This document shows, piece by piece, positions 7,371 to 40,710 of a stretch of 64,000 nt of DNA (its first letter is position 1; each line of letters opens with the position of its first letter). The stretch is from Ferruginibacter sp. Lineage in GTDB: Bacteria > Bacteroidota > Bacteroidia > Chitinophagales > Chitinophagaceae. The DNA lies in assembly GCA_035485735.1 (NCBI GenBank), contig DATHNS010000015.1, positions 38,881-102,880 on the forward strand. Direction: 5' to 3'. The notes below the pieces were generated by a model, which ran no database searches, was not told where the DNA came from, and worked only from the letters and a program-made list of their open reading frames with translations. The translations under genes and the position numbers were made by a program.

Positions 7371-7477
7371 AATGTTCAATTATCAACGCTCAATATTCAA
7401 TGTTCAACTGATGAACTTCAAATAGTAAGGAGTTTTATAATTGAGAATTGAACATTGAATATTGAGCATTGAACATT
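7371..7477. repeat. Heptamer-arm palindrome (TTGARHA family), copy 1
   Basis: Left AATGTTC AATTATC AACGCTC AATATTC AATGTTC; right TTGAGAA TTGAACA TTGAATA TTGAGCA TTGAACA. Confidence 0.9.
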
Positions 7478-7483
7478 TCCTTA

Positions 7484-10078
7484 TTACTTCAAAAATCCTT
7501 TGATTTCCTGCAATTTCAGCAGCGCCTCAACCGGCGTTAACCGATTAATATCTGTGCTTTCTAATAATTTTCTTATCTCATCAAAAGTAGCTGAATGGGC
7601 ATCAAAAATGCTAAGCTGCATTTTCGGCGCGGCGATTTGTTTCACGGTATCTTCGATCGGACTGCCTACATGCGTTTCTTCCAATTGAACTAAAATTTCA
7701 TTGGCCCTATCGATCAATGATGGTGGCATACCGGCCATACGGGCAACATGAATACCAAAGCTATGTGTGCTGCCGCCCGGAGCCAGCTTACGTAAGAAGA
7801 TAATTTTATTACCTACTTCTTTATTAGTAACATGATAATTTTTTACGCCTTCAAATTTGTTTTCGAGTTCATTCAACTCGTGGTAATGCGTGGCGAATAA
7901 TGTTTTGGGTGAGTATTGGCTTTTGTGTAAATATTCAACAATACTCCAGGCGATAGAGATACCATCATAAGTCGATGTTCCTCTTCCTATTTCATCTAAT
8001 AATATCAAACTTCGGGAAGTAATGTTATTGATAATACTAGCAGTTTCATTCATCTCTACCATGAATGTACTTTCGCCACCACTTAAATTATCTGATGCTC
8101 CTACCCTTGTAAATATTTTATCTGTCAGCGGAATTTTTGCATCCGATGCCGGCACAAAGCTACCCATATGCGCCATCAACGTGATTAGGGCAGTCTGGCG
8201 AAGGATCGCACTCTTACCGCTCATATTCGGACCGGTCAAAATAATGATCTGCTGCGTTTCAGGATCGAGAAAAATATCGTTGGAAATATATGATTCGCCT
8301 ACCAGCAGATTTCTTTCGATCACAGGGTGCCTGCTATCTCTCAGGTCTAATATATTACCATCACTGATCGATGGTTTTTTATAATTGAAATGAAGCGCGT
8401 TGTTGGCAAAGCAAGTCAGGCAATCTAATGTTGCTAAAACATTCCCATTGATCTGCATGGGCGCGATATAATCCTGCAATTCATTCAACAGCTTTTCAAA
8501 CAGCTGCAATTCAATCTGCAATATTTTATCTTCTGCGCCGAGTATTTTTTCTTCGTAGACTTTTAATTCCGGTGTGATATAGCGTTCTGCATTTGCCAGT
8601 GTTTGTTTACGTATCCATGTTTCAGGAACTTTAGGCTTGTGCATATTGGTCACTTCCAAATAATAACCAAACACATTGTTGAAGCTTATTTTCAAAGAAG
8701 AAATACCTGTTGCCTGTGCTTCCTTTTGTTGCAGCTCTAACAAATAATCTTTACCGCCGCTTGATATTTTTCTTAGCTCATCTAATTCTTCATTGATGCC
8801 CATTGCGATCACGCCGCCTTTATTGGCTAAAGCCGGAGGGTTTTCATTGATCTCCTTACTAATCCTTTCTAAAATTAATTTGCAGGGGTTTAAAGAATCA
8901 CCCAAACGTTTTAAATAATCATTGCCAATAGATGCGCAAATGGTTTTGATCGCATCTACCTGTTGTAAGCCTTTGGCAATTTGTAATACTTCGCGCGGGT
9001 TCACTTTTTTCAGTGGCACTTTACTCACCAGTCTTTCAATATCACCGGCCTGTTTAACATGTGCCGCTATCTGCGTTCTAACGTCTACTTCTTTTATCAA
9101 AAATTCAACCGTGTTTAAACGTTCGTTGATCTTGATGATATTATTCAACGGTAATACCATCCAGCGTTTCAACATACGTGCGCCCATTGGTGAGACCGTA
9201 TTATCTATCACTTTCAATAAAGTGTTGCTCCCTTCGGCTCCGCCAAATAATTCAAGGTTGCGGATAGTGAAGCGATCCATCCATAAATGTTCTTCCCTAT
9301 CGATCCTTTGAATAGAAGTGATATGTCCTAGATTAGGATGTTCTGTATCTTTTAAATAATGCAATATTGCACCGGCAGCAACAATGCCTGCAAACATCCC
9401 TTCTACGCCAAAACCTTTTAAGCTATGTGTGCCAAAATGTTTTAATAAGCTTTCAGTTGCATATGCATCTGCAAAGATCCATTCATCTAAAGTGTAGGTA
9501 AAAAATTTAGAGCCGAAGGTTTCTTTGAAATTTTTCTGCTGGTTACGCTGAAAAATAACTTCTGCCGGCTGTAAGCTTTGTAATAATTTATCAGCGTATT
9601 CTTTATCGCCTTCGGCCAGAAAAAATTCTCCGGTACTGATATCTAAAAAAGCAATACCTATTTTATTTTCATTAAAATGTAAACCCGCTAAAAAATTATT
9701 TTTATTATGCTCTAATAATTTATCGCTGGTAGCAACACCTGGCGTCACCAATTCGGTTACGCCGCGTTTTACAATTCCTTTTACATCTTTAGGATTTTCT
9801 AATTGATCGCAGATGGCTACGCGATAACCAGCCTTCACTAATTTATGTAAATAAGTATCTAAAGAATGATGAGGGAATCCTGCCAGCTGAGAAGAATCTG
9901 CATTGCCATTATTTCTTTTGGTTAATGTGATGCCCAATACTGCCGATGCGTTAACAGCATCCTGACCAAAAGTTTCATAAAAATCGCCTACCCTAAATAG
10001 TAAAATAGCATCTGGATAGCGTGCCTTGATAGCACTATGTTGTTGCATTAATGGAGTTTCCCCGGTTGCCTTGGCCAT
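7484..10078 (-). CDS. mutS: DNA mismatch repair protein MutS
   Basis: TPLMQQ, FRVGDFYETF, ITGPNMSGKS-type P-loop, FMVEM, DEIGRGTST, ATHYHEL. Confidence 0.98.
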   Translation of the reverse strand: MAKATGETPLMQQHSAIKARYPDAILLFRVGDFYETFGQDAVNASAVLGITLTKRNNGNADSSQLAGFPHHSLDTYLHKLVKAGYRVAICDQLENPKDVKGIVKRGVTELVTPGVATSDKLLEHNKNNFLAGLHFNENKIGIAFLDISTGEFFLAEGDKEYADKLLQSLQPAEVIFQRNQQKNFKETFGSKFFTYTLDEWIFADAYATESLLKHFGTHSLKGFGVEGMFAGIVAAGAILHYLKDTEHPNLGHITSIQRIDREEHLWMDRFTIRNLELFGGAEGSNTLLKVIDNTVSPMGARMLKRWMVLPLNNIIKINERLNTVEFLIKEVDVRTQIAAHVKQAGDIERLVSKVPLKKVNPREVLQIAKGLQQVDAIKTICASIGNDYLKRLGDSLNPCKLILERISKEINENPPALANKGGVIAMGINEELDELRKISSGGKDYLLELQQKEAQATGISSLKISFNNVFGYYLEVTNMHKPKVPETWIRKQTLANAERYITPELKVYEEKILGAEDKILQIELQLFEKLLNELQDYIAPMQINGNVLATLDCLTCFANNALHFNYKKPSISDGNILDLRDSRHPVIERNLLVGESYISNDIFLDPETQQIIILTGPNMSGKSAILRQTALITLMAHMGSFVPASDAKIPLTDKIFTRVGASDNLSGGESTFMVEMNETASIINNITSRSLILLDEIGRGTSTYDGISIAWSIVEYLHKSQYSPKTLFATHYHELNELENKFEGVKNYHVTNKEVGNKIIFLRKLAPGGSTHSFGIHVARMAGMPPSLIDRANEILVQLEETHVGSPIEDTVKQIAAPKMQLSIFDAHSATFDEIRKLLESTDINRLTPVEALLKLQEIKGFLK

Positions 10079-10084
10079 AAGCTA

Positions 10085-10145
10085 CAAAAATATGGTTTTA
10101 TCAACTTTAATAAACCCCATTTCTCCCCAATGTGAATTACTTTTG
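10085..10145. promoter_or_regulatory. Divergent -7 elements for mutS (-) and the trmH-like gene (+)
   Basis: TATTTTTG on - at 10085..10092; TACTTTTG on + at 10138..10145. Confidence 0.7.
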
Positions 10146-10161
10146 CCTATAATTTTGGGAG

Positions 10162-19895: not shown

Positions 19896-20966
19896 ATGCA
19901 GCGCCTTTCCAAAATAATAACCACACAATTCAAAAATTACTCACTCACATCTTTCAATTTTACTGAAAGAGTAGTAGGCATTTGCGGACCTAACGGGAAA
20001 GGCAAGACAAATCTTTTGGATGCTATTTATTACCTGAGTTTTACCAAAAGCTATTTCTCCAAATCTGATTCGATGAATATTTTATTTGGAGCAGATGGAT
20101 TTCGACTGGAAGGTGATTTTGGAGAACAAAAAGTTATTTGCATTCATCGCGGTATTGGAAAAAAAGAATTGTTTTTGAATGATGTTCCTTATGAAAAATT
20201 CTCGCAACATATCGGCAGGTTTCCTTGTGTGATGATCGCTCCGGATGATATTGAATTAATAACAGGCGCCAGCGAAGAACGCAGAAAATTCATTGATACG
20301 GTCTTAAGCCAGATGGATGCCGATTACCTGCAACAATTGATACAATACACCAAAGTGCTGCAACAAAGAAACAGTTTATTAAAACGCTTTGCTGAACAAG
20401 GAAAAACAGATTGGCATTTATTAGAAGTGTTAGATGAACAGTTAATAAAACCGGGAGAATATATTTACGCGAAAAGAAAAGATTTTACGGCAGCTTTGAT
20501 ACCATTGGTACAAAAATTTTACAAACAAATTGCAGATAACCATGAAAGCGTAACACTCCAGTATGAAAGCCAGCTGAACGCAAATAATTTTCAGGCATTG
20601 ATCAATCAATTCAGAGAAAAAGATTTCCTGTTACAACGTAGTAATGGTGGCGTACACAAAGACGATATCACTATACAACTAGACGGGCAAATATTTAAAA
20701 ACATTGCATCACAGGGACAACGAAAGAGTTTGTTATTTGCGCTTAAGCTGGCAGAATTCGAATTATTAAAAACAAAAAAGGGCTTTGCTCCATTGCTATT
20801 GTTAGATGATGTTTTTGAAAAGCTGGACAATGAGCGCATGCAAAATCTATTACACTGGGTTTGTAATGAAAATAAAGGGCAGGTCTTTATTACCGATACG
20901 CACCAGGAAAGGCTGGAGTTGGCGCTGACAGCATTAGATACGACTTACCAGATCATATCAATTTAA
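19896..20966 (+). CDS. recF: DNA replication/repair protein RecF
   Basis: FKNY, GPNGKGKTNLLDAIYYLS, ERRKFID, SQGQRK, LLLDDVF; start moved to ATG 19896. Confidence 0.95.
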   Translation: MQRLSKIITTQFKNYSLTSFNFTERVVGICGPNGKGKTNLLDAIYYLSFTKSYFSKSDSMNILFGADGFRLEGDFGEQKVICIHRGIGKKELFLNDVPYEKFSQHIGRFPCVMIAPDDIELITGASEERRKFIDTVLSQMDADYLQQLIQYTKVLQQRNSLLKRFAEQGKTDWHLLEVLDEQLIKPGEYIYAKRKDFTAALIPLVQKFYKQIADNHESVTLQYESQLNANNFQALINQFREKDFLLQRSNGGVHKDDITIQLDGQIFKNIASQGQRKSLLFALKLAEFELLKTKKGFAPLLLLDDVFEKLDNERMQNLLHWVCNENKGQVFITDTHQERLELALTALDTTYQIISI

Positions 20967-21037
20967 TGGTAAATTGTAAATGGTAAATGGTAAATTGCAG
21001 TAGCAATGATCCCTTATATCATTTACAATTTACAATT
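20965..21037. repeat. Heptamer-arm palindrome (AATGGTA family)
   Basis: AATGGTA AATTGTA AATGGTA AATGGTA AATTGCA ... TATCATTTACAATTTACAATT. Confidence 0.88.
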
Positions 21038-21043
21038 ACTACC

Positions 21044-21325
21044 GTGGGTGAATTTTCAATGCAAGATGCTATTAAACAATTTCTGCAGCAAAGCCGCTTA
21101 AAGAGTGGTATGCAGGCGATGCGCATTGAAGAAATATGGGAACAGATAATGGGTAAGACAATTGCGAAGTACACTGATAAAATTCAAATCATTAATCAAA
21201 CTTTATTTATCAATACAGCCGTTGGGCCACTAAAGAACGAGCTATTATATCAAAAGGATAAAATAATAGAAAGAGTAAATGAAGCCTTGGGAGAAAAAGT
21301 AATTACGGAAGTGGTGATTAAGTAA
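21044..21325 (+). CDS. DUF721/DciA-like protein
   Basis: W.QIMG..IAKYT..I.I....LFI......LKNEL pattern directly after recF; start moved to GTG 21044. Confidence 0.8.
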   Translation: MGEFSMQDAIKQFLQQSRLKSGMQAMRIEEIWEQIMGKTIAKYTDKIQIINQTLFINTAVGPLKNELLYQKDKIIERVNEALGEKVITEVVIK

Positions 21326-21404
21326 GAAGTGAAAAGTCAAAACCAAAAAGTAGAGAGACTTTATAACTTATGGGTTTTCACTTTTGCCTTTTGACTTTGG
21401 CTTA
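21325..21404. repeat. Heptamer-arm palindrome (AAAGTYA family) filling a convergent intergenic gap
   Basis: AGAAGTG AAAAGTC AAAACCA AAAAGTA ... TAACTTA TGGGTTT TCACTTT TGCCTTT TGACTTT. Confidence 0.85.
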
Positions 21405-22430: not shown

Positions 22431-22442
22431 ATAAATCTTGTT

Positions 22443-22943
22443 TTAATGACAAGTTTGTAATTGCTCACCTGTAGGAAGATCAAACCCATTATTGTCTATT
22501 TGATCTTCAAATTTAAAACTATCGATTAGCATATTTGCAGGTAAACACGGCAACTCATACAACTTGCCACAAATACCAATTTTTCTATTGCCTGTTGTTA
22601 CTGCCTGTATCCTATAATAAAATTTTACGGGCGTACTGCTTATGGTCGTAGGCTTCCAACTCTCAAATAATGATGTAGTAGTAAAAACAACATCATTATT
22701 TGTATTGTACAACGTGAAAGAAATGGAATCTATATTTTTTAGAGATGGCCTGCAAATATCATTTAGTCCATCGCCATTAGGTGTAAAAGCTGTAGGCATA
22801 TATATCCTTGCACTATCGTTCGTACCTAATGTATCTGTTATTAGTCCGTCGCAACTAGCAACAGTTCCGTTATCACCGGCAGTCTTCCTACAACTAAACA
22901 ATGAAATAACTGCAATTAAGATTATGGAAATATTTTTTTTCAT
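22443..22943 (-). CDS. Lipoprotein with an internal T9SS type-B CTD-like domain
   Basis: MKKNISIILIAVISLFSC lipobox (start moved to 22943); IYMPTAFTPNGDGLND motif. Confidence 0.75.
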   Translation of the reverse strand: MKKNISIILIAVISLFSCRKTAGDNGTVASCDGLITDTLGTNDSARIYMPTAFTPNGDGLNDICRPSLKNIDSISFTLYNTNNDVVFTTTSLFESWKPTTISSTPVKFYYRIQAVTTGNRKIGICGKLYELPCLPANMLIDSFKFEDQIDNNGFDLPTGEQLQTCH

Positions 22944-22965
22944 AGGATAGTTTAAAAGATATAAT

Positions 22966-24099
22966 TCATTTCGAAGCACTTTCAATATCTGCAGCGCCCC
23001 ATTTATCTTCAATCACCGGGCCATCCATTAAAAACAAGGTAGGTGTTGCACGTGCTGCCGTTTTAATGGCCGTTACATCAGCAGTATATATCGGCACATT
23101 GTACTTTTGCTTTACATTCATAAAGCTATCCACCTTCTCTCTGTCTGATGTAATGACATAAATATTTTCACCGTTGTCCTTTGCCTTTTTCTTTATATCG
23201 ACGAAACTTTTTATCCAATAAAAAACATTTCTTCTGTCTAATTTATTTAAAAAGAATAAATAATATTTTCCATGTTGAGATAAAATGGCTTCGGTAGAAT
23301 CATTACCGTTAACATCGGTCAGAGAAAAATCATTGATAAGAGGTTGATTATTTTTCCCTTTTTCAACAATTACATCTTTTCTTGTTTCTGGCTCAATTTG
23401 CCAGGTTGAATCTGGATATTGAGGAGAAGTAAACACTTTTTCTTCCTGCCCTTTTTTATATGTAAAAGAAATTTCTACTTTATCTGGTATAGCATCAGCA
23501 GGCATTTGACGCAATGCTAATATATTATTGCCTTTTTTAAATGGCAGGCAATCGATCACTGGCAAATGCTCCAGTACATGTGATTGTAAAAAAACAACGC
23601 CCATTACTGTTAGTGCCACGATACCGAAATTTGACATTGCCTGAAAAAGCGGATGGATATGTTTTCTTCCTGTTACAAGAATAATGATCAATGCAAGCAA
23701 GACGAGATTCTTAATGAATGTTTGCATATCCGTTAACGGAATACAATTGCCAAAACAACCGCACTCTCTTATATTTCCGGTAAACAAAGAATAGGCTGTC
23801 AAAAAAGTATAAAACAATGTCATCCAAAACAACACCCACACTACGATATTTTTTCTCCACCCGATCAATAGGGCAACACCCGCAAGCACTTCAACCGTGA
23901 TCATTACTACTGAAAAGGCAAGCGCAAAATCATGCAGACTGTTCATTACAGACCCCATCGCACCACCGCCTGCACCCCATGCTTCAAAAAATTCCTGTGT
24001 TTTATACGCCAGTCCTAATGGATCCATCGCTTTTACAATACCCGAAAAAATGAACAGCAGCCCTACAATAACTCTCGCAATATTTACAATTGTTTTCAT
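22966..24099 (-). CDS. BT_3928-like DoxX/MauE membrane protein with soluble C-terminal domain
   Basis: RVIVGLLFIFSGIVKAMDP, EVLAG, ECGCFG, DCLPFKKG. Confidence 0.8.
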   Translation of the reverse strand: MKTIVNIARVIVGLLFIFSGIVKAMDPLGLAYKTQEFFEAWGAGGGAMGSVMNSLHDFALAFSVVMITVEVLAGVALLIGWRKNIVVWVLFWMTLFYTFLTAYSLFTGNIRECGCFGNCIPLTDMQTFIKNLVLLALIIILVTGRKHIHPLFQAMSNFGIVALTVMGVVFLQSHVLEHLPVIDCLPFKKGNNILALRQMPADAIPDKVEISFTYKKGQEEKVFTSPQYPDSTWQIEPETRKDVIVEKGKNNQPLINDFSLTDVNGNDSTEAILSQHGKYYLFFLNKLDRRNVFYWIKSFVDIKKKAKDNGENIYVITSDREKVDSFMNVKQKYNVPIYTADVTAIKTAARATPTLFLMDGPVIEDKWGAADIESASK

Positions 24100-24179
24100 G
24101 ATTCGTATTTATTCCCATTCCCTGAAGGGGTGTTATGAGAAGATTAATAATTTATTTTACCCTTTATTTTTATTGCATA

Positions 24180-24725: not shown

Positions 24726-24743
24726 CGTTTGATAAATGTCTTA

Positions 24744-24751
24744 TACTTTTG
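24744..24751 (+). promoter_or_regulatory. -7 element for folP
   Basis: TACTTTTG. Confidence 0.7.
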
Positions 24752-24779
24752 TCGAACTCAAAATTAATCGTTTACACTG

Positions 24780-25604: not shown

Positions 25605-25685
25605 TATCTTCCTGATAATGATTAATTTTATAGCATAATAATCTAATTAACGATCTCGCATTTTAATGACCTAATTGCACTGCTT

Positions 25686-30695: not shown

Positions 30696-30713
30696 AATAA
30701 ACACATCAAAAAG

Positions 30714-30749
30714 AAAATGCCAGAATCCGACAATGGATCCTGGCATTTT
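30714..30749. terminator. Bidirectional terminator
   Basis: AAAATGCCAG..ATCC / GGAT..CTGGCATTTT between convergent genes. Confidence 0.75.
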
Positions 30750-30774
30750 ACTTTATTATATTATTCTATAACTA

Positions 30775-31830
30775 TTATTGATTTGGAGCGCCGCCCTGAA
30801 GCTGGCCTTGTGGCCTTGGATGCGCTTTTCTTACAGAATCCATTATTTGTTGATGACGTTCTCTTTCTAATTGTTGTTTCTGCATTTGCTGGTCTTTGTA
30901 TTGATCAACAGTAAGGATATCAACTACCTCAACATTAAAAATAAGATTTTCATCAGGGCCAATTTTTGGACCAGACCCTTTTTTACCATAAGCCAAAGAT
31001 GAAGGGATCAGGAATATTCCTTTACTTCCTTTTTTCATTTGTCTTAAACCATCTACCCATCCCGGAATTACATTTATCTGGCCCATGTTAACTGCAAATG
31101 GACCTACATGGCCAAATTCAGCACTAACATTTGAATCAAATACAGTATCAACTAAGGTTTTACCTGTGTAATTAACCATAACAACACTGTTGCTATCGAT
31201 CAGATCACCCGCTCCAGGATCAGTAATAGAAACATAAGTGCCCCATTGCCCTTTTGTAGCAACGATATGTTTTGCAGTCATGTAATCTGTTAATTTTTTA
31301 TCATCCACTTTTAATTGATCTGCATTGTCAACTAATAATTTATTAACTGTTGCTATAGTCTTTTGATAAGCTATCGCCCTAGACGCCGCCAAGTGAGATT
31401 TTTGAGCACTGTCTTTTTGATCTTCAGTTTTAAATATGTTCATTATCGTGAAATATTGATAAATGTATTGTCCTTTTTTCATAAAAGGAGCCGCCTGGCC
31501 TTTTTTGATAAGTGTATCCGTAGATATTCTTACTACAAAACTATCGCCAACATATACTTTATCAAATATCAATTTAAACGCAGGCGGAAACTCTTCCGGA
31601 TTATATGACGCGTATTGCGGCATCCCATTATCGCGGCTGCTGTAAAGAAGGCTGTCGATATATACAACACGATTATTCAATTCAAGAAAATCTCCTGTAG
31701 TTGCTCTTACACCCGTTTCTTTACTGATGATCTTATATTCCAATCCATCCGGCGCATGCTTGTATTTGCCTTTACATGCTGCAAACAATACTGTAACAGC
31801 AAGTAATAAATAAGTGATTCTTTTGTTCAT
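30775..31830 (-). CDS. FKBP-type peptidyl-prolyl isomerase, lipoprotein
   Basis: Lipobox FAAC; VNYTGK...FDSN, VIPGW.DGL, IPSSLAYG, LIFNVEV. Confidence 0.93.
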   Translation of the reverse strand: MNKRITYLLLAVTVLFAACKGKYKHAPDGLEYKIISKETGVRATTGDFLELNNRVVYIDSLLYSSRDNGMPQYASYNPEEFPPAFKLIFDKVYVGDSFVVRISTDTLIKKGQAAPFMKKGQYIYQYFTIMNIFKTEDQKDSAQKSHLAASRAIAYQKTIATVNKLLVDNADQLKVDDKKLTDYMTAKHIVATKGQWGTYVSITDPGAGDLIDSNSVVMVNYTGKTLVDTVFDSNVSAEFGHVGPFAVNMGQINVIPGWVDGLRQMKKGSKGIFLIPSSLAYGKKGSGPKIGPDENLIFNVEVVDILTVDQYKDQQMQKQQLERERHQQIMDSVRKAHPRPQGQLQGGAPNQ

Positions 31831-31840
31831 TTGATTTGAT

Positions 31841-32860
31841 TTAAAATTTATAAGTACTTAATTGATCTTTATTCTCTTTCATGGCGGCAACAAATTTTGC
31901 TGCAACTTCTTCCAGCGGTTCTTTGCTGTTTCCGCCTGCTGCATTGTAATGTCCGCCGCCGTTAAAATATTTTCTGGCAAAAGTGTTCACGTCAAAATCG
32001 CCTTTACTTCTAAAAGAGCTTTTACGTTCTTCACCCCTGTCTATAATGATCGCCGCCAATTTTATTCCCTGTATGCCCAGCGGATAATTTACCAATCCTT
32101 CGGTGTCTCCTGTTTTTGCATTGAACTTGATAAGGTCGCTTTGCGGTATTACTATTAATGCTGTATTGTATTCGTAAAATAATTCCAGTCTGTTGCTAAG
32201 TATGTTTCCTAAAAAACGGTAACGGCTCTCTGAATTGTTATCAAATATTGATTCATGCACATCACTATGCTGCAAACCTTTGTCTTTAAGCGCTGCCACC
32301 ATTCTATGTACACTTGCAGAAGTAGAGGGAAAACGAAAAGATCCCGTATCCGTCATTACACCTGCATATAAACATTCTGCTATTGCAATATTTATTTTAT
32401 CGGCATTGCCAGAATTAACGATAAAATCATAGACCATTTCTGCCGTAGAGCTTTTACCGGTATCACTAACACCGTATGCAAATTTTTCAACCTGCGGTTC
32501 CTGGTGATGATCAATTAAGATACGAACGGCTTTAGAAGCATCTAACTTAGGTTCCATTCTTTTGGTGCGACTAAGCGTATTAAAATCAAGACAAAATATC
32601 CATTCTGCCTCATCAATAATAGCGTCTGCCTTTTGCGTTTGCGCCTCATAATCAACTACCGATTTCGATTCCGGCATCCAGTTTAAAAAACTTGGCCAGT
32701 TGGTAGGTGAGATAACGGTAACGTTATGCCCTAACTGTTTTAAAAAATGATACAACCCCAAAGTTGACCCCATGGCATCACCATCAGGTTTTTGATGCAT
32801 TGTAATGACTACCTTTTTTGGTTGAGATAGCAGCGGATATAATTGTTCGATTGATAGCAT
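31841..32860 (-). CDS. nrnA: DHH-family phosphoesterase (NrnA-like)
   Basis: HQKPDGDAMGS, LIDHH, TDTGSF, SFRS, GGGHYNAAG; start moved to 32860. Confidence 0.88.
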   Translation of the reverse strand: MLSIEQLYPLLSQPKKVVITMHQKPDGDAMGSTLGLYHFLKQLGHNVTVISPTNWPSFLNWMPESKSVVDYEAQTQKADAIIDEAEWIFCLDFNTLSRTKRMEPKLDASKAVRILIDHHQEPQVEKFAYGVSDTGKSSTAEMVYDFIVNSGNADKINIAIAECLYAGVMTDTGSFRFPSTSASVHRMVAALKDKGLQHSDVHESIFDNNSESRYRFLGNILSNRLELFYEYNTALIVIPQSDLIKFNAKTGDTEGLVNYPLGIQGIKLAAIIIDRGEERKSSFRSKGDFDVNTFARKYFNGGGHYNAAGGNSKEPLEEVAAKFVAAMKENKDQLSTYKF

Positions 32861-32868
32861 AAAGCGGG

Positions 32869-32959
32869 CAAAAGTACTTTTAATTAGCCAATTGACAAAT
32901 ACCGGCATCATGGAATTAACAAAATGGTTACCGCCTAATTAAATTCCACCTTATCTTTG
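32869..32959. promoter_or_regulatory. Divergent -7 elements for the DHH gene (-) and ndk (+)
   Basis: TACTTTTG on - at 32869..32876; TATCTTTG on + at 32952..32959. Confidence 0.7.
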
Positions 32960-32979
32960 CTGCTCAAAAATACAAACTG

Positions 32980-33396
32980 ATGAGTAAGAGAACGTTCACG
33001 ATGATCAAGCCAGATGCGACCGCCAAGGGCAATACTGGCGCTATTTTAAGTATGATAAACGCTGCAGGTTTCAGGATCGTGGCCATGAAAATGCTGCACC
33101 TGAGCACAGAAAAAGCCGGTGAATTCTATGCCGTGCATAAAGAAAGGCCTTTCTACGGTGAATTAGTAGATTTTATGGCTCAGGGGCCAATAACAGCTGC
33201 CATTCTGGAAAAAGACAATGCAGTAGAAGATTTTCGCAAATTGATCGGCGCTACCAATCCTGCACAAGCTGCAGAAGGTACGATCCGTAAATTATACGCT
33301 GCATCCATCGGTGAAAATGCTGTTCACGGAAGTGACAGTGATGAGAACGCTGCTATCGAAGGCGATTTCTTTTTCAGTAAGCTGGAACAGTTTTAA
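32980..33396 (+). CDS. ndk: Nucleoside diphosphate kinase
   Basis: [33 protein letters not shown]. Confidence 0.98.
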
Positions 33397-33479
33397 TAAA
33401 TAAATTCAAAGAAAGAATCCCAAATTCCAGCGATGGAGTTTGGGATCTTTTCTTTCCTTTCACGAGACATTTTTTGAAA

Positions 33480-35261
33480 TTATTTTCCGCACCCTTTTAA
33501 TAATTCAGGATCCACAGGATAATTAAGATCTTTTGCAATTTGGATGTCGTTACAATAGTCGCTTAGCAACAGTTTTTTTATTTGTCCGCGGATATAATAT
33601 CCATAACCGGATTTCGGATCAATAACGATCGCCTTATTACAATCTGCCAAAGCCGATGCCATATTTGCATCTGATTTTTTTATGGATGATTTAACGGGTA
33701 GAGTCCAGTTCGCATTAAAGGATTGATCATTCGTTCCACCACTGACAAAATAAGATCTCACAGTAATGTTATTAGCAATATCGACTTTTGCAACTGCTCT
33801 GTTCACGTATGCCTGATAAAATGAAAAATTGATCTCAATCGCTTTATTATAATCATCTAAAGCCTGCTGGTATTTCCCTAACGCCATTAATATATCTCCC
33901 CTTACATTGTAAAAATCTTCTGTCGTAAAATCCTTAAGGTCAGGTGCTAACGTTAGCGCTGTATTGATAGCCACTAATGCTGAATCGTAATCGCCCAATG
34001 CAAACTTAGATTGCGCAATAGAAAGCTGCGCGGTTGCAAAAAACAAAGCTATCTGCTTGTCTAGTGTTGTTGGGTCCCACCCTGTATGCTTTTGATTTAA
34101 CTTATAGTCATCAACAACATTTTCTTTATTATTAAAAGAAGCAGTATAATCTGATAGTGCCTGTGTATAATCCTTTGCCGTAAAATAGGCATTACCCCGA
34201 AAACATAACATCATTGAATTTTTTGGAAACTTTTTCAATCCTGCCGTGTATATCCTAATCGCTTTATCATATTGCTGCAAATTATAAAATGCAACTCCTC
34301 TCTGATAATAATAACTTGCTTTGCCTGAATCGCAATAAATATCAATTGAATATTCCAGGTTATTTTTTAATGAATCTGTTGGGCCATATTTTTTAAGCGT
34401 ATCATAAGCAGTATATAAATCAACACAGTAACCGTCCATATCTTCAAGTGTGTAGTCGACGAATGACCGGTTATAATAAGCACCATAATCTTTAGGATTT
34501 AATTTTACTGCTTTTGCATAATCTGCCATTGCCAGATCACGTTCTGTAAGGCTCGCATAAATTGCGGCTCTGCCCAGGTATAATTTTTCCTGATTACTAT
34601 CAAGAGAAATGGCCATATTTATATCCTGCAAGGCTTCCTGCGTCATTTGTTTATTGAAATAGTGATCCGCACGTTCAAAATAAGCATCGTAATTATCAGG
34701 GGCCAGCTCTACAGCTTTATTAAAATCAAAAATAGCAAGAGAAGAATATCCCATTGATTCATTGAACTTTCCTCTTTGAATATAGTATTCAGCAGCTTTT
34801 GGAGCCAGTTCTATCGCTTCATCCATATCGGCTGAAGCGTTCGATCTATCGCCCAAAAATGCTTTTAGTTGTCCTCTTTGGGCATATAACATTGCATTGC
34901 CCGGATCCATGGCCAAACCTTTATTATAGCATTCAAGCGCCTTATTATAATCACTTTTCATAGAATAGGCCATACCAATATTTGCATAGCAATTACCACA
35001 CGCAGGATCAATGGCTAGCGCATCTGTATAATACTTTTTTCCAAGGTCCAATTGTTTGTTTTGAATATAGAGATACCCGAGCCAACGCAAAACATTTTCA
35101 TTGTTTGGGGCAGCTTTTAGTTCCTTCTGAAAGAATGGTATTAGCTTTTCAGTTTTTCCCGCTCTTTGAAAAGAGTCGACAATTTTATCGTATTTATTGG
35201 GTTTTTGTGCAACTGCAAAAAAAGCGCAAAGCGTTAACAGGATTGTTATAAAATGTTTCAT
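33480..35261 (-). CDS. Exported multi-TPR protein
   Basis: Signal peptide; many Y..RG...A..D...AI.L.P repeats. Confidence 0.88.
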   Translation of the reverse strand: MKHFITILLTLCAFFAVAQKPNKYDKIVDSFQRAGKTEKLIPFFQKELKAAPNNENVLRWLGYLYIQNKQLDLGKKYYTDALAIDPACGNCYANIGMAYSMKSDYNKALECYNKGLAMDPGNAMLYAQRGQLKAFLGDRSNASADMDEAIELAPKAAEYYIQRGKFNESMGYSSLAIFDFNKAVELAPDNYDAYFERADHYFNKQMTQEALQDINMAISLDSNQEKLYLGRAAIYASLTERDLAMADYAKAVKLNPKDYGAYYNRSFVDYTLEDMDGYCVDLYTAYDTLKKYGPTDSLKNNLEYSIDIYCDSGKASYYYQRGVAFYNLQQYDKAIRIYTAGLKKFPKNSMMLCFRGNAYFTAKDYTQALSDYTASFNNKENVVDDYKLNQKHTGWDPTTLDKQIALFFATAQLSIAQSKFALGDYDSALVAINTALTLAPDLKDFTTEDFYNVRGDILMALGKYQQALDDYNKAIEINFSFYQAYVNRAVAKVDIANNITVRSYFVSGGTNDQSFNANWTLPVKSSIKKSDANMASALADCNKAIVIDPKSGYGYYIRGQIKKLLLSDYCNDIQIAKDLNYPVDPELLKGCGK

Positions 35262-35373
35262 AAAGATTTACGTCTGATCCTAAAAATAAACCAAGCATTT
35301 ATCCTTAGCAAATATTTTATTGTATGAATAAAAAAACAAATCCCAAGACTGGAGTTGAAGATGTTGTTGTAAT

Positions 35374-35410
35374 AAAAAAGACAAATTCATTTCTGAATTT
35401 GTCTTTTTTT
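35374..35410. terminator. Terminator of the orphan gene 35458..35913
   Basis: AAAAAAGACAAATTCA-TTTC-TGAATTTGTCTTTTTT. Confidence 0.85.
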
Positions 35411-35457
35411 ATTTTCTTGTTATTATATATGATATTACCTTAAAGAAGGAAATATCT

Positions 35458-35913
35458 CTATTGATTTATATTGCCAATAATAACTTGTATCCCCAATACG
35501 CCTGCGCTATATACTGATACGCCATTAAAAGGTTCTCCTAAAGATTGTCCATGGCTACCTACACGAAATCCGTTCGAATTCAAATAATTCTCTACTTGTA
35601 TAGCTGCTGATCCTCCATTGCTACCTTGCATAAGCATGATACCAACAATTGTATCCTTAGGGGAACTCTGTTTGCTGACAACCATTTGTAATAATTTTTT
35701 TAGATCTGTATTTGTCAACAAAATCTTAGTGTCAACATCACCCATACCTACGGTGCTGTTATTACCGTCGATTATATGAATGCCTCCCGATGGCGATGGC
35801 AAGGTGGTGTCAGCAGATACTGCAGATAAATTTGTTGAATTTGTTTTACTAAAACCAGCTGTTGCTGTTAGCGTAAATATTGCGGGAACCGCAATCAATA
35901 ATAATTTGTTCAT
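35458..35913 (-). CDS. Hypothetical exported protein
   Basis: 151-aa ORF with signal peptide filling a gene-sized gap; no recognisable family. Confidence 0.6.
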   Translation of the reverse strand: MNKLLLIAVPAIFTLTATAGFSKTNSTNLSAVSADTTLPSPSGGIHIIDGNNSTVGMGDVDTKILLTNTDLKKLLQMVVSKQSSPKDTIVGIMLMQGSNGGSAAIQVENYLNSNGFRVGSHGQSLGEPFNGVSVYSAGVLGIQVIIGNINQ

Positions 35914-35989
35914 ATAGTTAGTTTTTATACGCCGAAACTAAGTTCTTTTTGGATACATGCAATAATTATTTATTAACGTGCCATGTAAT

Positions 35990-36023
35990 AAAAAAGACGA
36001 ATTTGTATTGAATTCGTCTTTTT
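35990..36023. terminator. lepA terminator
   Basis: AAAAAGACGAATT..AATTCGTCTTTTT. Confidence 0.85.
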
Positions 36024-36072
36024 ATTTATTATTGGTAATTTGACTGATCGTTTTTTGATCATTTCAATGGCA

Positions 36073-37863
36073 TCAATCATTCAACTTCAAAACCGCTAAA
36101 AACGCTTCCTGCGGCACTTCCACATTACCGATCTGCTTCATTCTTTTTTTACCTTCTTTTTGTTTTTCGAGGAGCTTACGTTTACGGCTGATATCACCGC
36201 CGTAACATTTAGCGGTTACATCTTTACGTATGGCGCTGATATTTTCTCTTGCAACAACCTTTGCACCGATAGAAGCCTGTATCGCAATTTGAAATTGCTG
36301 CCGCGGCAAAAGATCTTTTAATTTTTCACATAATTTTCTTCCGAATTCATGTGCCCTGGCTCTGTGTATCAAAGCACTTAAGGCGTCCAATTTATCTCCG
36401 TTCAATAAAATATCCATTTTTACAATATCACTCGGGCGATATTCTATCGGATGATAATCGAAAGAAGCGTAGCCTCTTGTAATGCTTTTTAATTTATCAT
36501 AAAAATCAAAAACGATCTCTGTTAACGGCATATCAAACGCGAGCTCAACCCTTGTTGGTGTTAAATATTGCTGACTGGTCAATACGCCTCGTTTACCGAT
36601 GCACAACGTCATGATATTACCTATATAATCCGGCTTGGTAATGATCTGCGCCCTAATAAAAGGTTCTTCTATTTTTTCGATCCTTGTTGGATCAGGCATT
36701 TCTGTTGGATTGTTGATAATGATCACTTCGCCTTTAGAAGTGGTAGCAGTAAAACTTACATTGGGTACTGTTGTTATAACCGTTTGATTGAATTCTCTTT
36801 CCAAACGTTCCTGGATAATTTCCATGTGGAGCATCCCCAAAAAACCGCAACGAAAACCAAAACCTAATGCCTGGGATGTTTCCAATTCAAAAGTTAAAGA
36901 CGCATCGTTCAATTGAAGTTTGTCCATACAATCTCTCAACTCTTCAAAAGCATCTGTTTCTACAGGAAATATCCCTGCAAATACCATTGGCTTAACATCC
37001 TGAAAACCTTTAATGGATTCTGTGGAACCATTCACCATTGTTGTAATGGTGTCACCTACTTTTACTTCTTTGGCATTTTTTATACCGGTAATGATATAGC
37101 CCACATCTCCTGCCCTTACTTCACTTTTTGCTTCCATTCCTAATTTCAAAATACCTACTTCATCCGCACCATATTCCAAACCGGTATTAGAGAATTTAAT
37201 TTTATCATTCTTCTTTAGTGTGCCATTAAATATGCGATAGTAAACAATGATACCTCTGAAAGAATTATATACGCTATCAAATATCAATGCCTGCAATGGT
37301 GCATTGATATCACCCTTTGGTGCAGGTATACGTTTGATGATTGCTGCTAAGATCTCTTCGATACCGATACCACTTTTTCCACTGGCCAATAAAATATCGT
37401 CAACTTTGCAACCGATCAATTCTACTATCTGATCCTGCACTTCCGGGATCATGGCGCCATCCATATCGATCTTATTGATCACCGGAATAATTTCCAGGTT
37501 ATTCTCTATAGCTAAATATAGATTTGAAATTGTTTGTGCCTGTATTCCCTGCGAAGCATCTACCAGTAATAAAGCGCCTTCGCAAGCCGCCAAAGCACGA
37601 CTCACTTCATAACTAAAATCTACATGCCCGGGTGTATCAATAAGATTTAAAACGTATTCTTCTCCGTTCAATTTATAATTGATCTGAATAGCATGGCTTT
37701 TAATCGTGATGCCTTTTTCTCTTTCCAGATCCATATCATCCAATACCTGCGATTGCATGTCCCTTTCACCAATGGTATGGGTAAATTCCAATAGACGGTC
37801 TGCCAGTGTGCTCTTACCGTGATCAATATGTGCAATAATGCAAAAATTCCTGATATTCTTCAT
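36073..37863 (-). CDS. lepA: Elongation factor 4
   Basis: [56 protein letters not shown]; start moved to 37863. Confidence 0.99.
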
Positions 37864-37889
37864 CCTTACTTGTCCTCTTTTGAGAGCAG

Positions 37890-37897
37890 CAAAAGTA
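37890..37897 (-). promoter_or_regulatory. -7 element for lepA
   Basis: TACTTTTG; supports the 37863 start. Confidence 0.7.
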
Positions 37898-37927
37898 ACT
37901 GATTTTTGGGGATTAACAGTGTCACAT

Positions 37928-37958
37928 AAAAACGCCACACTTTTAAAAGCATGGCGTT
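37928..37958 (-). terminator. Terminator of DoxX paralog 1
   Basis: AAAAACGCCAC...ATGGCGTT. Confidence 0.75.
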
Positions 37959-37983
37959 ACATAGGCTATAATATTTATAAAAC

Positions 37984-38427
37984 TTATTTATGTTCAGTAT
38001 CTATCTCTGTTTTATAATAATTCATGAAAGATACCGGGCCGTCGCCTTCTATAACAAATACTATCAATAACAACAGTACCAGTAAAGAAAAGATCAGTCC
38101 GCTTTCAAAAGCAAAAATCCCCTCGTGTGCGTGCACAAAAATAATAGCCCCCAATACAATGGGTATCTGTACTGCCGAAGCCACTCTTGTAAAGATCCCG
38201 ATGACTATTAAAAATCCCGCAATTATATTTATCCATATAACAGCGTAATCCAACCAGGGTTGATCCATATGGAAACTACTGACCATCAGATCATGAAACT
38301 GTAATGAGTGATTAAAAAAAGAAAAACCTTTTAGTAGCAGGCTAAGGCCAAGTGCTACTCTAAAGAAAGCAAGCCATTTTGGATTATGGGCTGCGGTCCA
38401 ATCTGCAATTTTGTGTGATGAAAGCAT
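37984..38427 (-). CDS. DoxX-family membrane protein (paralog 1)
   Basis: RVALG..LLLKG, GFLIVIGIFTRVAS..QIP, EGDGP.S. Confidence 0.85.
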   Translation of the reverse strand: MLSSHKIADWTAAHNPKWLAFFRVALGLSLLLKGFSFFNHSLQFHDLMVSSFHMDQPWLDYAVIWINIIAGFLIVIGIFTRVASAVQIPIVLGAIIFVHAHEGIFAFESGLIFSLLVLLLLIVFVIEGDGPVSFMNYYKTEIDTEHK

Positions 38428-38532
38428 ATAGCATAGGTATTAATGGTGATGAAATAAAGCAATCTCTATCTACGTAACGAGGTAATTATAAAAATATTAT
38501 AAATTATTACAATATTTTATATACTAGAGCAT

Positions 38533-38563
38533 AAAAAACGCCACACTCTGAAAATGTGGCGTT
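38533..38563 (-). terminator. Terminator of DoxX paralog 2
   Basis: AAAAAACGCCACAC..ATGTGGCGTT, homologous to 37928..37958. Confidence 0.8.
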
Positions 38564-38599
38564 AAGGATGGCATACAGCAAAATTCTTAAAAAAATTAT

Positions 38600-39037
38600 T
38601 TAATACGCGGGATCTTCCGATTTAACATAATTTGAAAGAGATATTGGGCCATCCCCTTCAATTAGAAATACCATTAGTAATAATAGTATTATCAAAGATA
38701 AAACCAACGCATTCTGAAATGCGAAATACCCGCCCGTTGTATTAACAAAAAATATAGCTCCCAATATCAACGGTATTTGAACCAAAGAAGCTACACGGGT
38801 AAATAGTCCGATAACAATTAAAAAGCCCCCGATTATATTTGCCCAGATAATGGTATAATCTACCCACGGCTGGTTTATATTCAACGAACTTGTTACCAGG
38901 TCATGAAAAAGATTTTGGTGGTATAAAAATGAGAGCCCCTTCATTAAAAGGCCAATACCTAATGCCACCCTAAGAAAGGCCAATCCTTTTGGATTGTGCG
39001 CCATACTCCAATTTGAGATTTTGTTAAGTAAAATCAT
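38600..39037 (-). CDS. DoxX-family membrane protein (paralog 2)
   Basis: Same motifs; aligns end to end with 37984..38427. Confidence 0.85.
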   Translation of the reverse strand: MILLNKISNWSMAHNPKGLAFLRVALGIGLLMKGLSFLYHQNLFHDLVTSSLNINQPWVDYTIIWANIIGGFLIVIGLFTRVASLVQIPLILGAIFFVNTTGGYFAFQNALVLSLIILLLLMVFLIEGDGPISLSNYVKSEDPAY

Positions 39038-39151
39038 AGGTTGTAGTTTTAAATGTGATGAAATACTACTGTATATATAACAGCAATTATTGTACCATTT
39101 CCTATTGAATTTTAAACAGTTTTATACTACATCCATTCAATATTATCTACG

Positions 39152-39182
39152 AAAAAACCGCAGCTGTAGACTGCGGTTTTTT
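39152..39182. terminator. Aminotransferase terminator
   Basis: AAAAAACCGCAG-CTGTAGA-CTGCGGTTTTTT. Confidence 0.88.
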
Positions 39183-39201
39183 ACTCATTTATTCAGGTGT
39201 T

Positions 39202-40404
39202 TTACTTCAATTTTGCAAGGGCTGTTTTAATTCTTTCGATAGCTTCTACCAGTTTTTCATCGCTTGCAGCTGTACTTAAACGGATACAGTTTGGCGCACC
39301 AAAAGCATTACCGGTAACCATGGCTACATAGGCTGTTTCCAATAGCCAAAGACATAGTTCATCTGCGTTATGGATGGTTACTTTTCCATCAGATTTGCCA
39401 AAGTAATAGCTAACGTCAGGAAAAGCATAAAAAGCCCCATCCGGTACGCGGACTTTAAAGCCTGGCACTTCCTTTAATTTACTAATTACCAGGTCCCTGC
39501 GGCGCCTGTAAGCTTCCAACATCATTTTAGGAGCTTCCATATTAGTGAATGCAACTGCCGCAGCTTTTTGCGCAATGCTATTGGTTCCGCTGGTAACTTG
39601 TCCTTGTAATTTATCCAGTGCATCTACGATCCATTTAGCAGCAGCCGTCCAGCCTACTCTCCATCCTGTCATTGCAAATCCTTTACTGAAACCATTTACA
39701 GTAATTACCCTGTCTTTAATTTCAGGAATGCTTCCCATGCTAAAATTGCCTTCTGCAGTAAAGTTGATGTATTCATATATCTCATCAGCCAGTACAAAAA
39801 TATTGGGATGTTTGGCAACGATCGCTGCAAAAGCCCTCAATTCTTTTTCACTGTAAACAGACCCGGTCGGGTTGTTTGGCGATGCATACATAATGATCTT
39901 TGTTTTTGGCGTAATCGCCGCTTCCAGTTGAGCAGGTGTCACTTTAAAATCATTTTCAAAACTGCCTTCTACAATTACACTTTTACCTTCGGCGATCTTT
40001 ACCATTTCAGCATAACTCACCCAATATGGCGCAAGGATGATGACCTCTTGTCCAGGATTGATCAATGTTTCGATCACATTGGCCAAAGAATGTTTGGCAC
40101 CTGTTGATACAATAATATTTTCAGCCTTCCAATCAAGGTTATTTTCTTTTTTCAACTTTTCGGCAATAGCTGTACGCAATTCAGGAATACCTGATACTGG
40201 TGTGTATGCATGAAACCCGTCATCGACGGCTTTTTTTGCCGCATCACAAATGTGCTTGGGGGTTTTAAAATCAGGTTCTCCTACACTTAAATTAATTACA
40301 TCGTGGCCCTGAGCTGCTATTTCACGGCTCTTTTTGCTCATGGCAAGGGTGGCACTTTCTTCCAGTGCGTTTATTCTGTCGGCTAATAGAGGATTGTAAG
40401 ACAC
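39202..40404 (-). CDS. PLP-dependent class I aminotransferase (aspartate aminotransferase-like)
   Basis: LSVGEPDF, GAKHSL, SPNNPTG, DEIYE, NGFSKGFAMTGWRVG; GTG start. Confidence 0.93.
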   Translation of the reverse strand: MSYNPLLADRINALEESATLAMSKKSREIAAQGHDVINLSVGEPDFKTPKHICDAAKKAVDDGFHAYTPVSGIPELRTAIAEKLKKENNLDWKAENIIVSTGAKHSLANVIETLINPGQEVIILAPYWVSYAEMVKIAEGKSVIVEGSFENDFKVTPAQLEAAITPKTKIIMYASPNNPTGSVYSEKELRAFAAIVAKHPNIFVLADEIYEYINFTAEGNFSMGSIPEIKDRVITVNGFSKGFAMTGWRVGWTAAAKWIVDALDKLQGQVTSGTNSIAQKAAAVAFTNMEAPKMMLEAYRRRRDLVISKLKEVPGFKVRVPDGAFYAFPDVSYYFGKSDGKVTIHNADELCLWLLETAYVAMVTGNAFGAPNCIRLSTAASDEKLVEAIERIKTALAKLK

Positions 40405-40439
40405 TTATTTGTTTTTTTGTAAAAAATGTTTTTAGCGTG

Positions 40440-40447
40440 CAAATTTA
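40440..40447 (-). promoter_or_regulatory. -7 element for the aminotransferase
   Basis: TAAATTTG. Confidence 0.65.
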
Positions 40448-40602
40448 GGAATTAATATTTTCTGAATTGGGATTTTGATTTGGAGATTTGGTGATTTGTT
40501 AATCCGTAGATGTTTAAAGCAAATAAATGATGAAACGCCCCCGAAAGTTTTCGGGGAATGAAGCCAAATAGATGTACTAAGGCCGGACTCTTAATTTACC
40601 TA

Positions 40603-40710
40603 AATGTTCAATTCTCAATGCTCAATTCTCAATGTTCAACCGATTTTACATCAAAACCCTTTACTGTATTGGATTGGATATCGAGCATTGAGAATTGAAC
40701 ATTGAGCATT
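40603..40710. repeat. Heptamer-arm palindrome (TTGARHA family), copy 2
   Basis: AATGTTC AATTCTC AATGCTC AATTCTC AATGTTC ... TCGAGCA TTGAGAA TTGAACA TTGAGCA. Confidence 0.9.

Follow-up and report, generated by a model that had tools for sequence, protein, structure and literature searches.

Here, we report a follow-up analysis of a 64,000-nt stretch of Ferruginibacter sp. DNA (contig DATHNS010000015.1, positions 38,881 to 102,880, here called the window), which bears two palindromes composed of 7-nt units, P1 (7371 to 7477) between deaD and mutS and P3 (40603 to 40710) between an aminotransferase gene and secDF. On balance, though with considerable reserve, we favor reading both as paired, inverted members of a class of intergenic heptamer tandem arrays that is spread through the genome, evolves in place, and would form RNA stem-loops in most of its positions. 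Besides at least six heptamer palindromes, the window has five solo arrays, and together they represent at least three unit families (AATGTTC, AATGGTA, and AAAAGTC); nearly all are intergenic, and many abut stop codons directly. The source genome belongs to the Chitinophagaceae, near Ferruginibacter (its MutS is 84% identical to that of a Ferruginibacter metagenome-assembled genome, and matches to its RecF, DeaD, and aminotransferase bear the name Ferruginibacter), and 99% of the window sequence was found in one soil metagenome.

Heptamer palindromes and solo arrays

The left arm of P1 (7371 to 7407, strand not assigned) consists of five AATnnTC units (AATGTTC AATTATC AACGCTC AATATTC AATGTTC AA) and is separated by a 33-nt loop (7408 to 7440), which contains a small internal helix (GAACUUC/GGAGUUU), from a right arm (7441 to 7477) of five TTGAnnA units (TTGAGAA TTGAACA TTGAATA TTGAGCA TTGAACA TT). 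The arms are complementary at 78% of positions when 37 nt are compared and at 90% when 30 nt are. The left arm of P3 (40603 to 40639, strand not assigned; AATGTTC AATTCTC AATGCTC AATTCTC AATGTTC AA) is followed by a 43-nt loop (40640 to 40682), unrelated in sequence to that of P1, and by a right arm (40683 to 40710; GAGCATT GAGAATT GAACATT GAGCATT) whose first three units mirror left-arm units 1 to 3. Predicted RNA folds have free energies of −39.2 (forward strand) and −38.1 (reverse strand) kcal/mol for P1 and −39.6 (forward) and −40.6 (reverse) kcal/mol for P3, the minimum-free-energy structure of P3 including a perfect 21-bp stem; z-scores of these folds lie between −6.1 and −8.1, and no fold as stable was obtained in 200 dinucleotide shuffles.

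An earlier reading of the window, made from its letters alone (the original prediction), had described two palindromic loci with modular heptamer arms. These were confirmed as inverted AATnnTC/GAnnATT arrays folding into 21- to 30-bp stems, with two variable positions in each 7-nt unit; of the loop lengths it gave, 33 nt holds for P1, and 41 nt holds for P3 if the trailing AA is assigned to the arm. The gene contexts were likewise verified by Pfam: P1 lies between convergent genes for a DEAD-box helicase (5524 to 7287, forward) and MutS (7484 to 10078, reverse) and ends 7 nt from the mutS stop codon (7484 to 7486), and P3 lies between divergent genes for a class I/II aminotransferase (39202 to 40404, reverse) and SecDF (40815 to 43790, forward).

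Repetition beyond the two loci, also foreseen, was found in the same window in the form of further palindromes and solo arrays. Units follow the formula AAT-N-N-T-(C/A/G), in which variation within an array is confined to positions 4 and 5 and the last base sets the family. Period-7 arrays were sought with Tandem Repeats Finder, regular expressions, and column-conservation scans; with at least four units and at least five invariant columns (at most two variable) required, eight were found in the window. The same criterion gave no array in the window at periods 6, 8, 9, 10, or 11 and none in 20 order-3 Markov simulations, so the arrays stand above the chance background against which the original prediction had proposed to check them. 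A lag-7 signal was present in about ten of the ~43 non-trivial spacers of the window, and a search of the whole window against Rfam 15 at the gathering threshold returned no match.

Among the other palindromes, P2 (20965 to 21037, forward; AATGGTA/TACAATT) fills the spacer from the recF stop to the dciA start, its first unit overlapping the recF TAA (−26.8 kcal/mol, z-score −5.3). P4 (61290 to 61369, reverse; AATGGTN/NACCATT), in the spacer from the glmS stop to the start of a DUF4954 gene, spans from the stop codon up to 7 nt short of the next start and has a 19-bp perfect stem (z-score −6.5). P5 (21326 to 21401, strand not assigned), of the AAAAGTC/GACTTTT family, fills the gap between the convergent stop codons of dciA and an ABC-permease gene, and a degenerate heptamer palindrome (17960 to 18030, reverse; −17.3 kcal/mol, z-score −5.0) occupies the spacer of two reverse-strand genes. 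Solo arrays include array A (7286 to 7320, forward; AATTGTA AATGGTA AATTATA AATGGTA AATATTA), whose first unit begins within the deaD TAA; an array at 17397 to 17428 (reverse; TAAGTTC TGAGTTG TAAGTTT TAAGTTA) that forms no hairpin (z-score +0.6); a short array at 52814 to 52834 (forward; AATGGTA AATGGTA AATTATA) that covers the upstream gene's stop codon and runs to within 3 nt of the following ATG; and another at 56049 to 56069 (strand not assigned; AATGGAT AATTGAT AATGGTA) in a 55-nt spacer of tandem genes.

The arrays also affect gene calling. Those of the AATGGTA family generate spurious ATG starts in all three frames. The start of dciA (DUF721) is probably GTG at 21044 (93 aa, as in relatives), and the mechanical open reading frame (ORF) start, ATG at 20987, falls inside the P2 array. 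A role as an all-frame stop-codon trap was considered for the arrays and rejected: only one of the two arms of a palindrome contains stops, and many A/T-rich heptamers are estimated (not computed) to hold a chance stop.

For a wider census, a MutS search of genome contigs supplied 80 Bacteroidota loci. Most loci were without arrays, and where present these were patchy, with lineage-specific units and frequent inverted pairs. In ~1.6 Mb of Bacteroidota loci, 62 of 71 arrays (~87%) lay in the non-coding 14% of the sequence, the coding share (86%) being set by crude ORF calls, and 18 of the 62 intergenic arrays were within 10 nt of a stop codon. Units were AATGGTC in L001, GAATTAG/CTAATTC in L005, AGTTGGC/GCCAACT in L020 (Chitinophaga rupis), AATAGTC in ten copies in L052, of several families in L079, and distinct again in L004 and L045. 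Adjacency of deaD and mutS was kept in none of the best 30 of the 80 loci. Head-to-tail 7-nt units, a period-7 excess, a preference for non-coding DNA, whole-unit copy polymorphism, and lineage-specific units, by which we assign the arrays to the heptamer class known variously as period-7 long simple sequence repeats or short tandemly repeated repetitive (STRR)-like repeats, were all found. The resemblance to the STRR sequences of cyanobacteria that had been pointed out earlier holds as well (period 7, intergenic position, lineage-specific units).

Further copies were sought in metagenomes. Contig depth in four metagenomes, that of the source soil and three related ones, climbs from ~12 to as much as 44 over the arrays, unitigs break inside the palindrome, and many contigs match the array only before running into unlike flanks, which means that further copies with different flanks exist. 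A related species (L322) carries a solo array (AATGTTC AATGCTC AATTTTC AATACTC AATGTTC) between groES and groEL. When metagenome and viral contigs were scanned for the pattern (AATnnTC)x4, an inverted partner was present within 200 nt in ~15% of the metagenome matches and ~10% overall, among the matches listed; the paired arrays among these had either arm order and unrelated loops, in a mixture of many organisms that says little on the copy number of this genome. Arrays of the family are also present in metatranscriptome contigs, from other loci, a faint hint that such arrays may be transcribed; in two metatranscriptomes, sequence matching the loci studied here was too sparse for 3' ends to be mapped. 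As a side observation, IMG/VR contigs (L201 to L314), some of them in giant-virus bins, carry (AATnnTC)x≥4 arrays, a few of them with inverted partners (such as L220, L242, L256, and L271); some of these are possibly unrelated simple repeats.

Array turnover at orthologous sites

Comparison of the same spacers among relatives indicates that the arrays evolve in place, through gain and loss of 7-nt units, through gain, loss, or exchange of whole arrays and arms, and through re-use of sites by unrelated heptamers. At deaD-mutS, two relatives (L326 and L327) keep P1 with its loop, the left arm being one unit shorter (an exact 7-nt indel); the P1 stem of L326 is perfect over more than 30 bp (−44.9 kcal/mol, z-score −11.7). 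Both are without array A (a 29-nt gap). Two others (L323 and L324) have an array A one unit shorter (again a 7-nt indel) and keep the left arm of P1, with its AATTATC unit as in the window; the loop and right arm of P1 are swapped for TTTACCA TTAACAA TTTACCA TTTACCA, which abut the mutS stop. In L323, this TACCATT-type arm pairs with array A to give a 20-bp outer stem around the canonical terminator that separates array A from P1 (−48.6 kcal/mol, z-score −10.8).

The recF-dciA spacer measures 77 nt with P2 in the window versus 13 nt in L315, the closest relative found at this locus (RecF, 94% identical in amino acids; ~84% in nucleotides). No target duplication was seen at this empty site. The last two RecF codons differ (S-I in the window, D-L in L315), and the new stop codon comes from the P2 array. 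The spacer of L315 (ATTTATAATTAACTTTACACC) can be aligned to the right arm of P2 (ATTTACAATTTACAATTACTACC), which suggests that a TTTACA-like seed was already present, was expanded, and was then copied in inverted orientation. Other heptamer arrays than that of P2 stand at this site in L316 and L317; the units at recF-dciA are ACTTATT ACTTAGA ACTTAAT in Ferruginibacter sp. SUN002 and CATAACT/CATAATT in F. lapsinanis. The presence/absence polymorphism that the original prediction had anticipated is thus seen in the absence of array A from L326 and L327 and in the empty recF-dciA site of L315.

At the P3 site, three relatives (L318, L319, and L320; L318 positions 9840 to 9925) bear a GC-rich heptamer palindrome between the same conserved promoter blocks (GACCATA GACCGCC GACAACC GACCACC ... 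GGTTGTT GGTGGTT GGTCGTC, that is, GACCNCC/GGTNGTY; −40 kcal/mol). The aminotransferase of these relatives is 96% identical (~81% in nucleotides). Two further relatives showed no clear array at this site. P5 is present in L315 (1708 to 1783), where a ~31-nt core matches that of the window at 26 of 31 positions as reverse complement versus 20 of 31 in forward orientation, and the two 9-nt ends of the core are exactly swapped; as judged from this alignment, the core was probably inverted by exchange between the arms.

The arms of a palindrome also match each other in their variable positions. The left-arm dinucleotides of P1 in L326 (GT, GC, AT, GT) have their exact mirror on the right, and the chance of such mirrored runs by random unit draws is 0.006 for P1 of L326 and 0.06 for P3 (three consecutive units). 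Rather than being independent arrays of one family, the arms are therefore duplicates in inverted orientation or are kept matched. A route by which this could come about is that a seed heptamer is expanded by slipped-strand mispairing and that a fold-back or template-switch event then makes an inverted copy of the array; the arms would be kept matched by recombination or conversion between them, which could also invert the loop.

The original prediction had instead placed the palindromes with REP-like (repetitive extragenic palindrome) or MITE-like (miniature inverted-repeat transposable element) sequences or, as an alternative, with protein-binding scaffolds. A mobile element of the first kind would be copied in trans by an enzyme of the RAYT (REP-associated tyrosine transposase), IS200, or other type encoded elsewhere in the genome. 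Multiple copies in genome and community, presence/absence polymorphism among relatives, and the palindromic architecture are what such an element would give. REP, bacterial interspersed mosaic element (BIME), and REPIN sequences are near-identical imperfect palindromes of 20 to 40 nt whose head is conserved and to which a RAYT gene is linked. The copies studied here are alike in unit type only: they are assembled from 7-nt units whose order and number vary, their loops are unique, and no two arms, loops, or full-length copies are alike. No shared flanks or target-site duplication were seen for P1 and P3 in the two sequences; the MITE-like form is also at odds with the unrelated loops, with the lack of duplication at the empty site of L315, where the 3' end of recF has been rewritten, and with the replacement of half of the element in L323. 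Orthologous copies shift by single 7-nt units, and sister species bear unrelated heptamers at the same sites. The window ORFs that were scanned or annotated by synteny included no transposase, RAYT, or reverse transcriptase, in agreement with the earlier statement that no cognate enzyme is encoded in the window. We hold a mobile element of this kind to be very improbable, and this part of the original prediction is not upheld; unit indels, arm replacement, and unrelated heptamers at the same sites fit tandem-array dynamics in place better than transposition.

Placement on transcripts and possible function

A bidirectional intrinsic terminator (7330 to 7373), formed by a perfect inverted repeat of 22 nt that has a GC core and is flanked by an A-run and a T-run, lies between array A and P1 and is kept in all relatives, with one wobble-compatible difference from L326. 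The mutS transcript reads stop codon, P1, terminator, and the deaD transcript reads stop codon, array A, terminator. Because P1 is on the mutS side of the terminator and after the mutS stop, it is an element of the 3' untranslated region (3' UTR). The same order of stop codon, array, and terminator recurs on the reverse strand at 30 to 82, where a solo TTTTAAC/TTTTGAC array (53 to 75) precedes a terminator hairpin CCCATAAGT..ACTTATGGG (30 to 52; both together, 30 to 75).

By analogy with the REP elements of enterobacteria, we infer a function at the RNA level for arrays in 3' UTR and intercistronic positions. Like REP sequences, these are extragenic palindromes in 3' UTRs and intercistronic spacers, and the consequences for RNA (3'-end protection and differential operon expression) are likely similar. 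Under the favored reading, long A/U-rich stem-loops carried on RNA in 3' UTRs and in the spacers of co-oriented genes would define, protect, or process mRNA 3' ends; they might block 3'-to-5' exonucleases, serve as targets of double-strand RNases, or decouple neighboring cistrons. The arrays would sit beside canonical terminators or between cistrons without being terminators themselves. To our knowledge, Bacteroidota have no Hfq, ProQ, or CsrA.

That the A/U-rich stems might themselves stop or pause RNA polymerase, as non-canonical terminators or attenuators, is a reading in keeping with the position of most copies directly 3' of stop codons in convergent or tandem spacers, with the very stable predicted hairpins, and, for the AAAAGTC/GACTTTT family, with a likeness to an extended A-tract, hairpin, and U-tract. 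The AATGTTC and AATGGTA palindromes, however, have no U-tract, and for these two families a canonical intrinsic terminator was rejected, their stems being A/U-rich and no T-run following. Ordinary terminators, with GC stem and T-run, are in use in this genome, and one of them (7330 to 7373) adjoins P1. P3 is downstream of no gene. Since the spacers of P2 and P4 are too tight to accommodate a further promoter, the gene downstream would be silenced if transcription ended completely at either of them. Terminators of Bacteroidota also deviate little from the canonical form (PMC13613805). We therefore find a terminator or attenuator role quite improbable; the original prediction, too, had held that the element is not simply a terminator, and the missing T-tract and the position of P3 upstream of both putative promoters bear it out.

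A second reading holds the arrays to be functionless, selfish or mutational debris of slippage and template switching that is tolerated in spacers. Fast turnover, empty sites, and lineage-specific units would suit such a by-product, as would similar arrays in viral contigs, the way in which arrays extend through spacers to the very edge of stop and start codons, as though coding constraint alone set their limits, and the location of P3 in an inter-promoter region taken as untranscribed. P1 speaks against it. Between the window and L326, 96 of the 100 aligned positions of P1 are identical, including 30 of the 33 loop positions, as opposed to four-fold-site identities of 75% (n = 199) for deaD and 67% (n = 309) for mutS, and because it is far better conserved than the four-fold sites of its flanking genes, P1 appears to be under purifying selection and is probably functional. 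The layout of terminator and heptamer stem is also kept in three lineages despite changed pairing partners, and perfect 21- to 30-bp stems persist despite the mutability of the arrays. A wholly neutral origin seems unlikely to us on these grounds.

P3 is harder to place. The Bacteroidetes −7 promoter consensus is TAnnTTTG. A putative −7 box of secDF (TATCTTTG; 40763 to 40770, forward), which fits this consensus and is a block invariant in the alignment of relatives, lies ~50 nt downstream of the end of P3, and a putative −7 box of the aminotransferase gene (TAAATTTG; 40440 to 40447, reverse) is kept as TAAnTTTG in relatives. Being upstream of both, P3 is probably in neither mRNA; it would either act at the DNA level in the region upstream of secDF or be a by-product, without function, of the same mutational process. 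The same region holds a short GC-rich hairpin (CCCCCGAAAGTTTTCGGGG; 40536 to 40556), 47 nt left of P3 and absent from L318 to L322, and about three copies of an octamer (GATTTGGN; 40466 to 40500) absent from relatives. Period-8 arrays such as this one accompany heptamers in some spacers, as also at L004 12602 to 12660; in L004 (Chitinophagaceae bacterium 26-R-25), octamers ATTTGGGG/ATTTGAAN follow straight after the mutS stop.

Several points weigh against RNA stem-loops evolving in place as a general account. Its position upstream of both flanking promoters makes P3 ill-suited to a role in mRNA, and the solo arrays at 17397 to 17428 and 56049 to 56069 do not fold, so the hairpin is not universal in the class. 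The conservation of P1 could in principle stem from recent recombination of the deaD-mutS block, and the loop inversion of P5 comes from one sequence pair with a core that is itself partly palindromic. Nor does ordinary slippage explain the strict period of 7, which keeps in play a protein that reads the heptads. As to the block itself (window 5343 to 10926), it is ~90% identical in nucleotides to L323 and L326, with ~70 to 79% on both sides, and its similarity reflects either unusually conserved genes or exchange of the block by recombination.

If a protein reads the heptads, the arrays could be a binding scaffold with one unit per monomer or domain, tuning translation, mRNA fate, or promoter activity, with the hairpin competing with binding. 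Candidate readers would be a cold-shock-domain, S1, or RNA recognition motif (RRM) protein on RNA or single-stranded DNA, or, on double-stranded DNA, a protein acting as ToxR/H-NS do on the heptads of the Vibrio cholerae ctxAB promoter. That promoter reportedly carries TTTTGAT heptads, which are said to differ in copy number between strains and to be bound by dedicated regulators. Common to both cases are an A/T-rich array upstream of a promoter and a unit close to the TTTTGAC/TTTTAAC of the window; unlike the arrays described here, the ctxAB array is single, promoter-specific, direct, and not palindromic, and it is not genome-wide. A scaffold would make sense of the restriction to period 7, for which slippage alone hardly accounts, of the AAT..T. 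positions conserved across unit families and Ferruginibacter lineages, of the constraint on P1 extending to its loop, of the location of P3 just upstream of the putative secDF promoter, and of the solo arrays that do not fold. An RRM_1 protein is encoded in the window (50474 to 50812), and binding by cold-shock or S1 proteins has been proposed for TAACTGA heptads (PMC4679880). A conserved sequence-specific reader fits poorly with units that are wholly different at the same site in related species (AATGTTC versus GACCACC), and the mirror-image arms suggest that base pairing matters, beyond single-strand sequence. We rate a scaffold as a possibility of some interest, though on the unlikely side. 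The RRM_1 protein (112 aa, reverse strand, E value 7e−22) is a candidate reader of single-stranded heptads. RRM proteins are typical of Bacteroidota and Cyanobacteria, both of them phyla with heptamer arrays.

More speculatively, and in our view improbably, the arrays could be the substrate of a dedicated system common to heptamer-rich lineages (Bacteroidota such as Ferruginibacter, Cyanobacteria, Xanthomonas, and Beggiatoaceae), with an enzyme that writes in a 7-nt register or a protein that reads heptads. The writer might act by templated slippage or a reverse-transcriptase-like activity, and the reader might be an RRM or cold-shock-domain protein; the two variable positions would then serve as an address code and the inverted pair as a switchable hairpin.

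Known heptamer systems and neighboring features

Period-7 repeats are reportedly known from the cyanobacterial STRR sequences of 1990 and from genome surveys of 2007 and 2015, as an unexplained excess in some bacterial genomes. The closest precedent for P1 and P3 is the inverted GGGAATC pairs of Xanthomonas. The GGGAATC heptamers of X. campestris and X. axonopodis form arrays of ~4 units that overlap stop codons or lie near them, often no more than 50 bp away. Most of these arrays are transcribed, few lie between divergent ORFs, and each genome has 70 to 75 convergent inverted pairs; from one sister species to the next, array length varies, but whether an array is singular or inverted usually stays the same (Rehm et al. 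2015, PMC4692102). Opposite-strand arrays of one unit in close proximity, and proximity to stop codons, are common to both systems. The Xanthomonas units, however, are G-rich and read via a G-quadruplex, whereas AATGTTC, AATGGTA, and AAAAGTC have no G-runs and no such capacity, and the arrays described here belong to another phylum (Bacteroidota), with several unit families per genome and two degenerate positions per unit. Since A/T-rich units cannot form G-quadruplexes, the explanation offered for Xanthomonas is not general.

The STRR heptamers of heterocystous cyanobacteria and the period-7 long simple sequence repeats of Mrazek et al. 2007, as summarized in PMC4692102 and PMC4679880, show an intergenic excess and lineage-specific units. 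The window arrays share these properties and the period-7 tandem form; their unit sequences are unrelated to those of STRRs, and most long window arrays are paired, in contrast to the few paired inverted arrays reported for Nostoc (PMC4692102). TAACTGA direct repeats occur in Beggiatoaceae, Cyanobacteria, and five Bacteroidetes, and in the Bacteroidetes the spacers concerned also hold other heptamers, with relatives that lack arrays at the same sites (MacGregor 2015, PMC4679880). These, too, are intergenic heptamers, patchy across phyla including Bacteroidetes, with a stop codon in each unit and so with stops in all three frames. They are, however, mostly direct and just upstream of start codons, with one inverted case, whereas the arrays studied here have another unit and form inverted pairs near stop codons. 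In the literature from 2016 onward, no paper was found that accounts for heptamer arrays; within the limited literature checked, the comparative details given above (7-nt indels, arm exchange, loop inversion, site re-occupation, and the constraint on P1) may be new.

The window and its metagenomic relatives form a compact comparative series on how heptamer arrays change. Should the hairpins help to set mRNA 3' ends or the stoichiometry of operons in Bacteroidota, they would amount to a widespread, overlooked layer of post-transcriptional control; should they be neutral, they would point to a peculiar mutational process. In genome annotation, the arrays explain assembly breaks at these sites and stop codons embedded in repeats.

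Some neighboring features were recorded along the way. Between the ABC-permease and MauE genes, the window encodes a 189-aa ORF (22443 to 23012, reverse) with a weak match to CHU_C, a type IX secretion signal; at the same position, L315 has instead a 127-nt spacer with its own TTTTCAC/TTTTGAC heptamers. A ~4-kb insertion is present in L318 (2777 to 6657) and absent from the window (43790 to 43890), between secDF and an Fe-S biogenesis gene, and carries HxlR, DinB_2, DUF6526, and restriction-like Mrr_cat/NA-iREase1 genes. Near-identical terminator hairpins (37931 to 37958 and 38537 to 38563, reverse; AACGCCAYR..TGTGGCGTT followed by a T-run) lie near the stops of adjacent DoxX paralogues and were probably copied together with the gene duplication.

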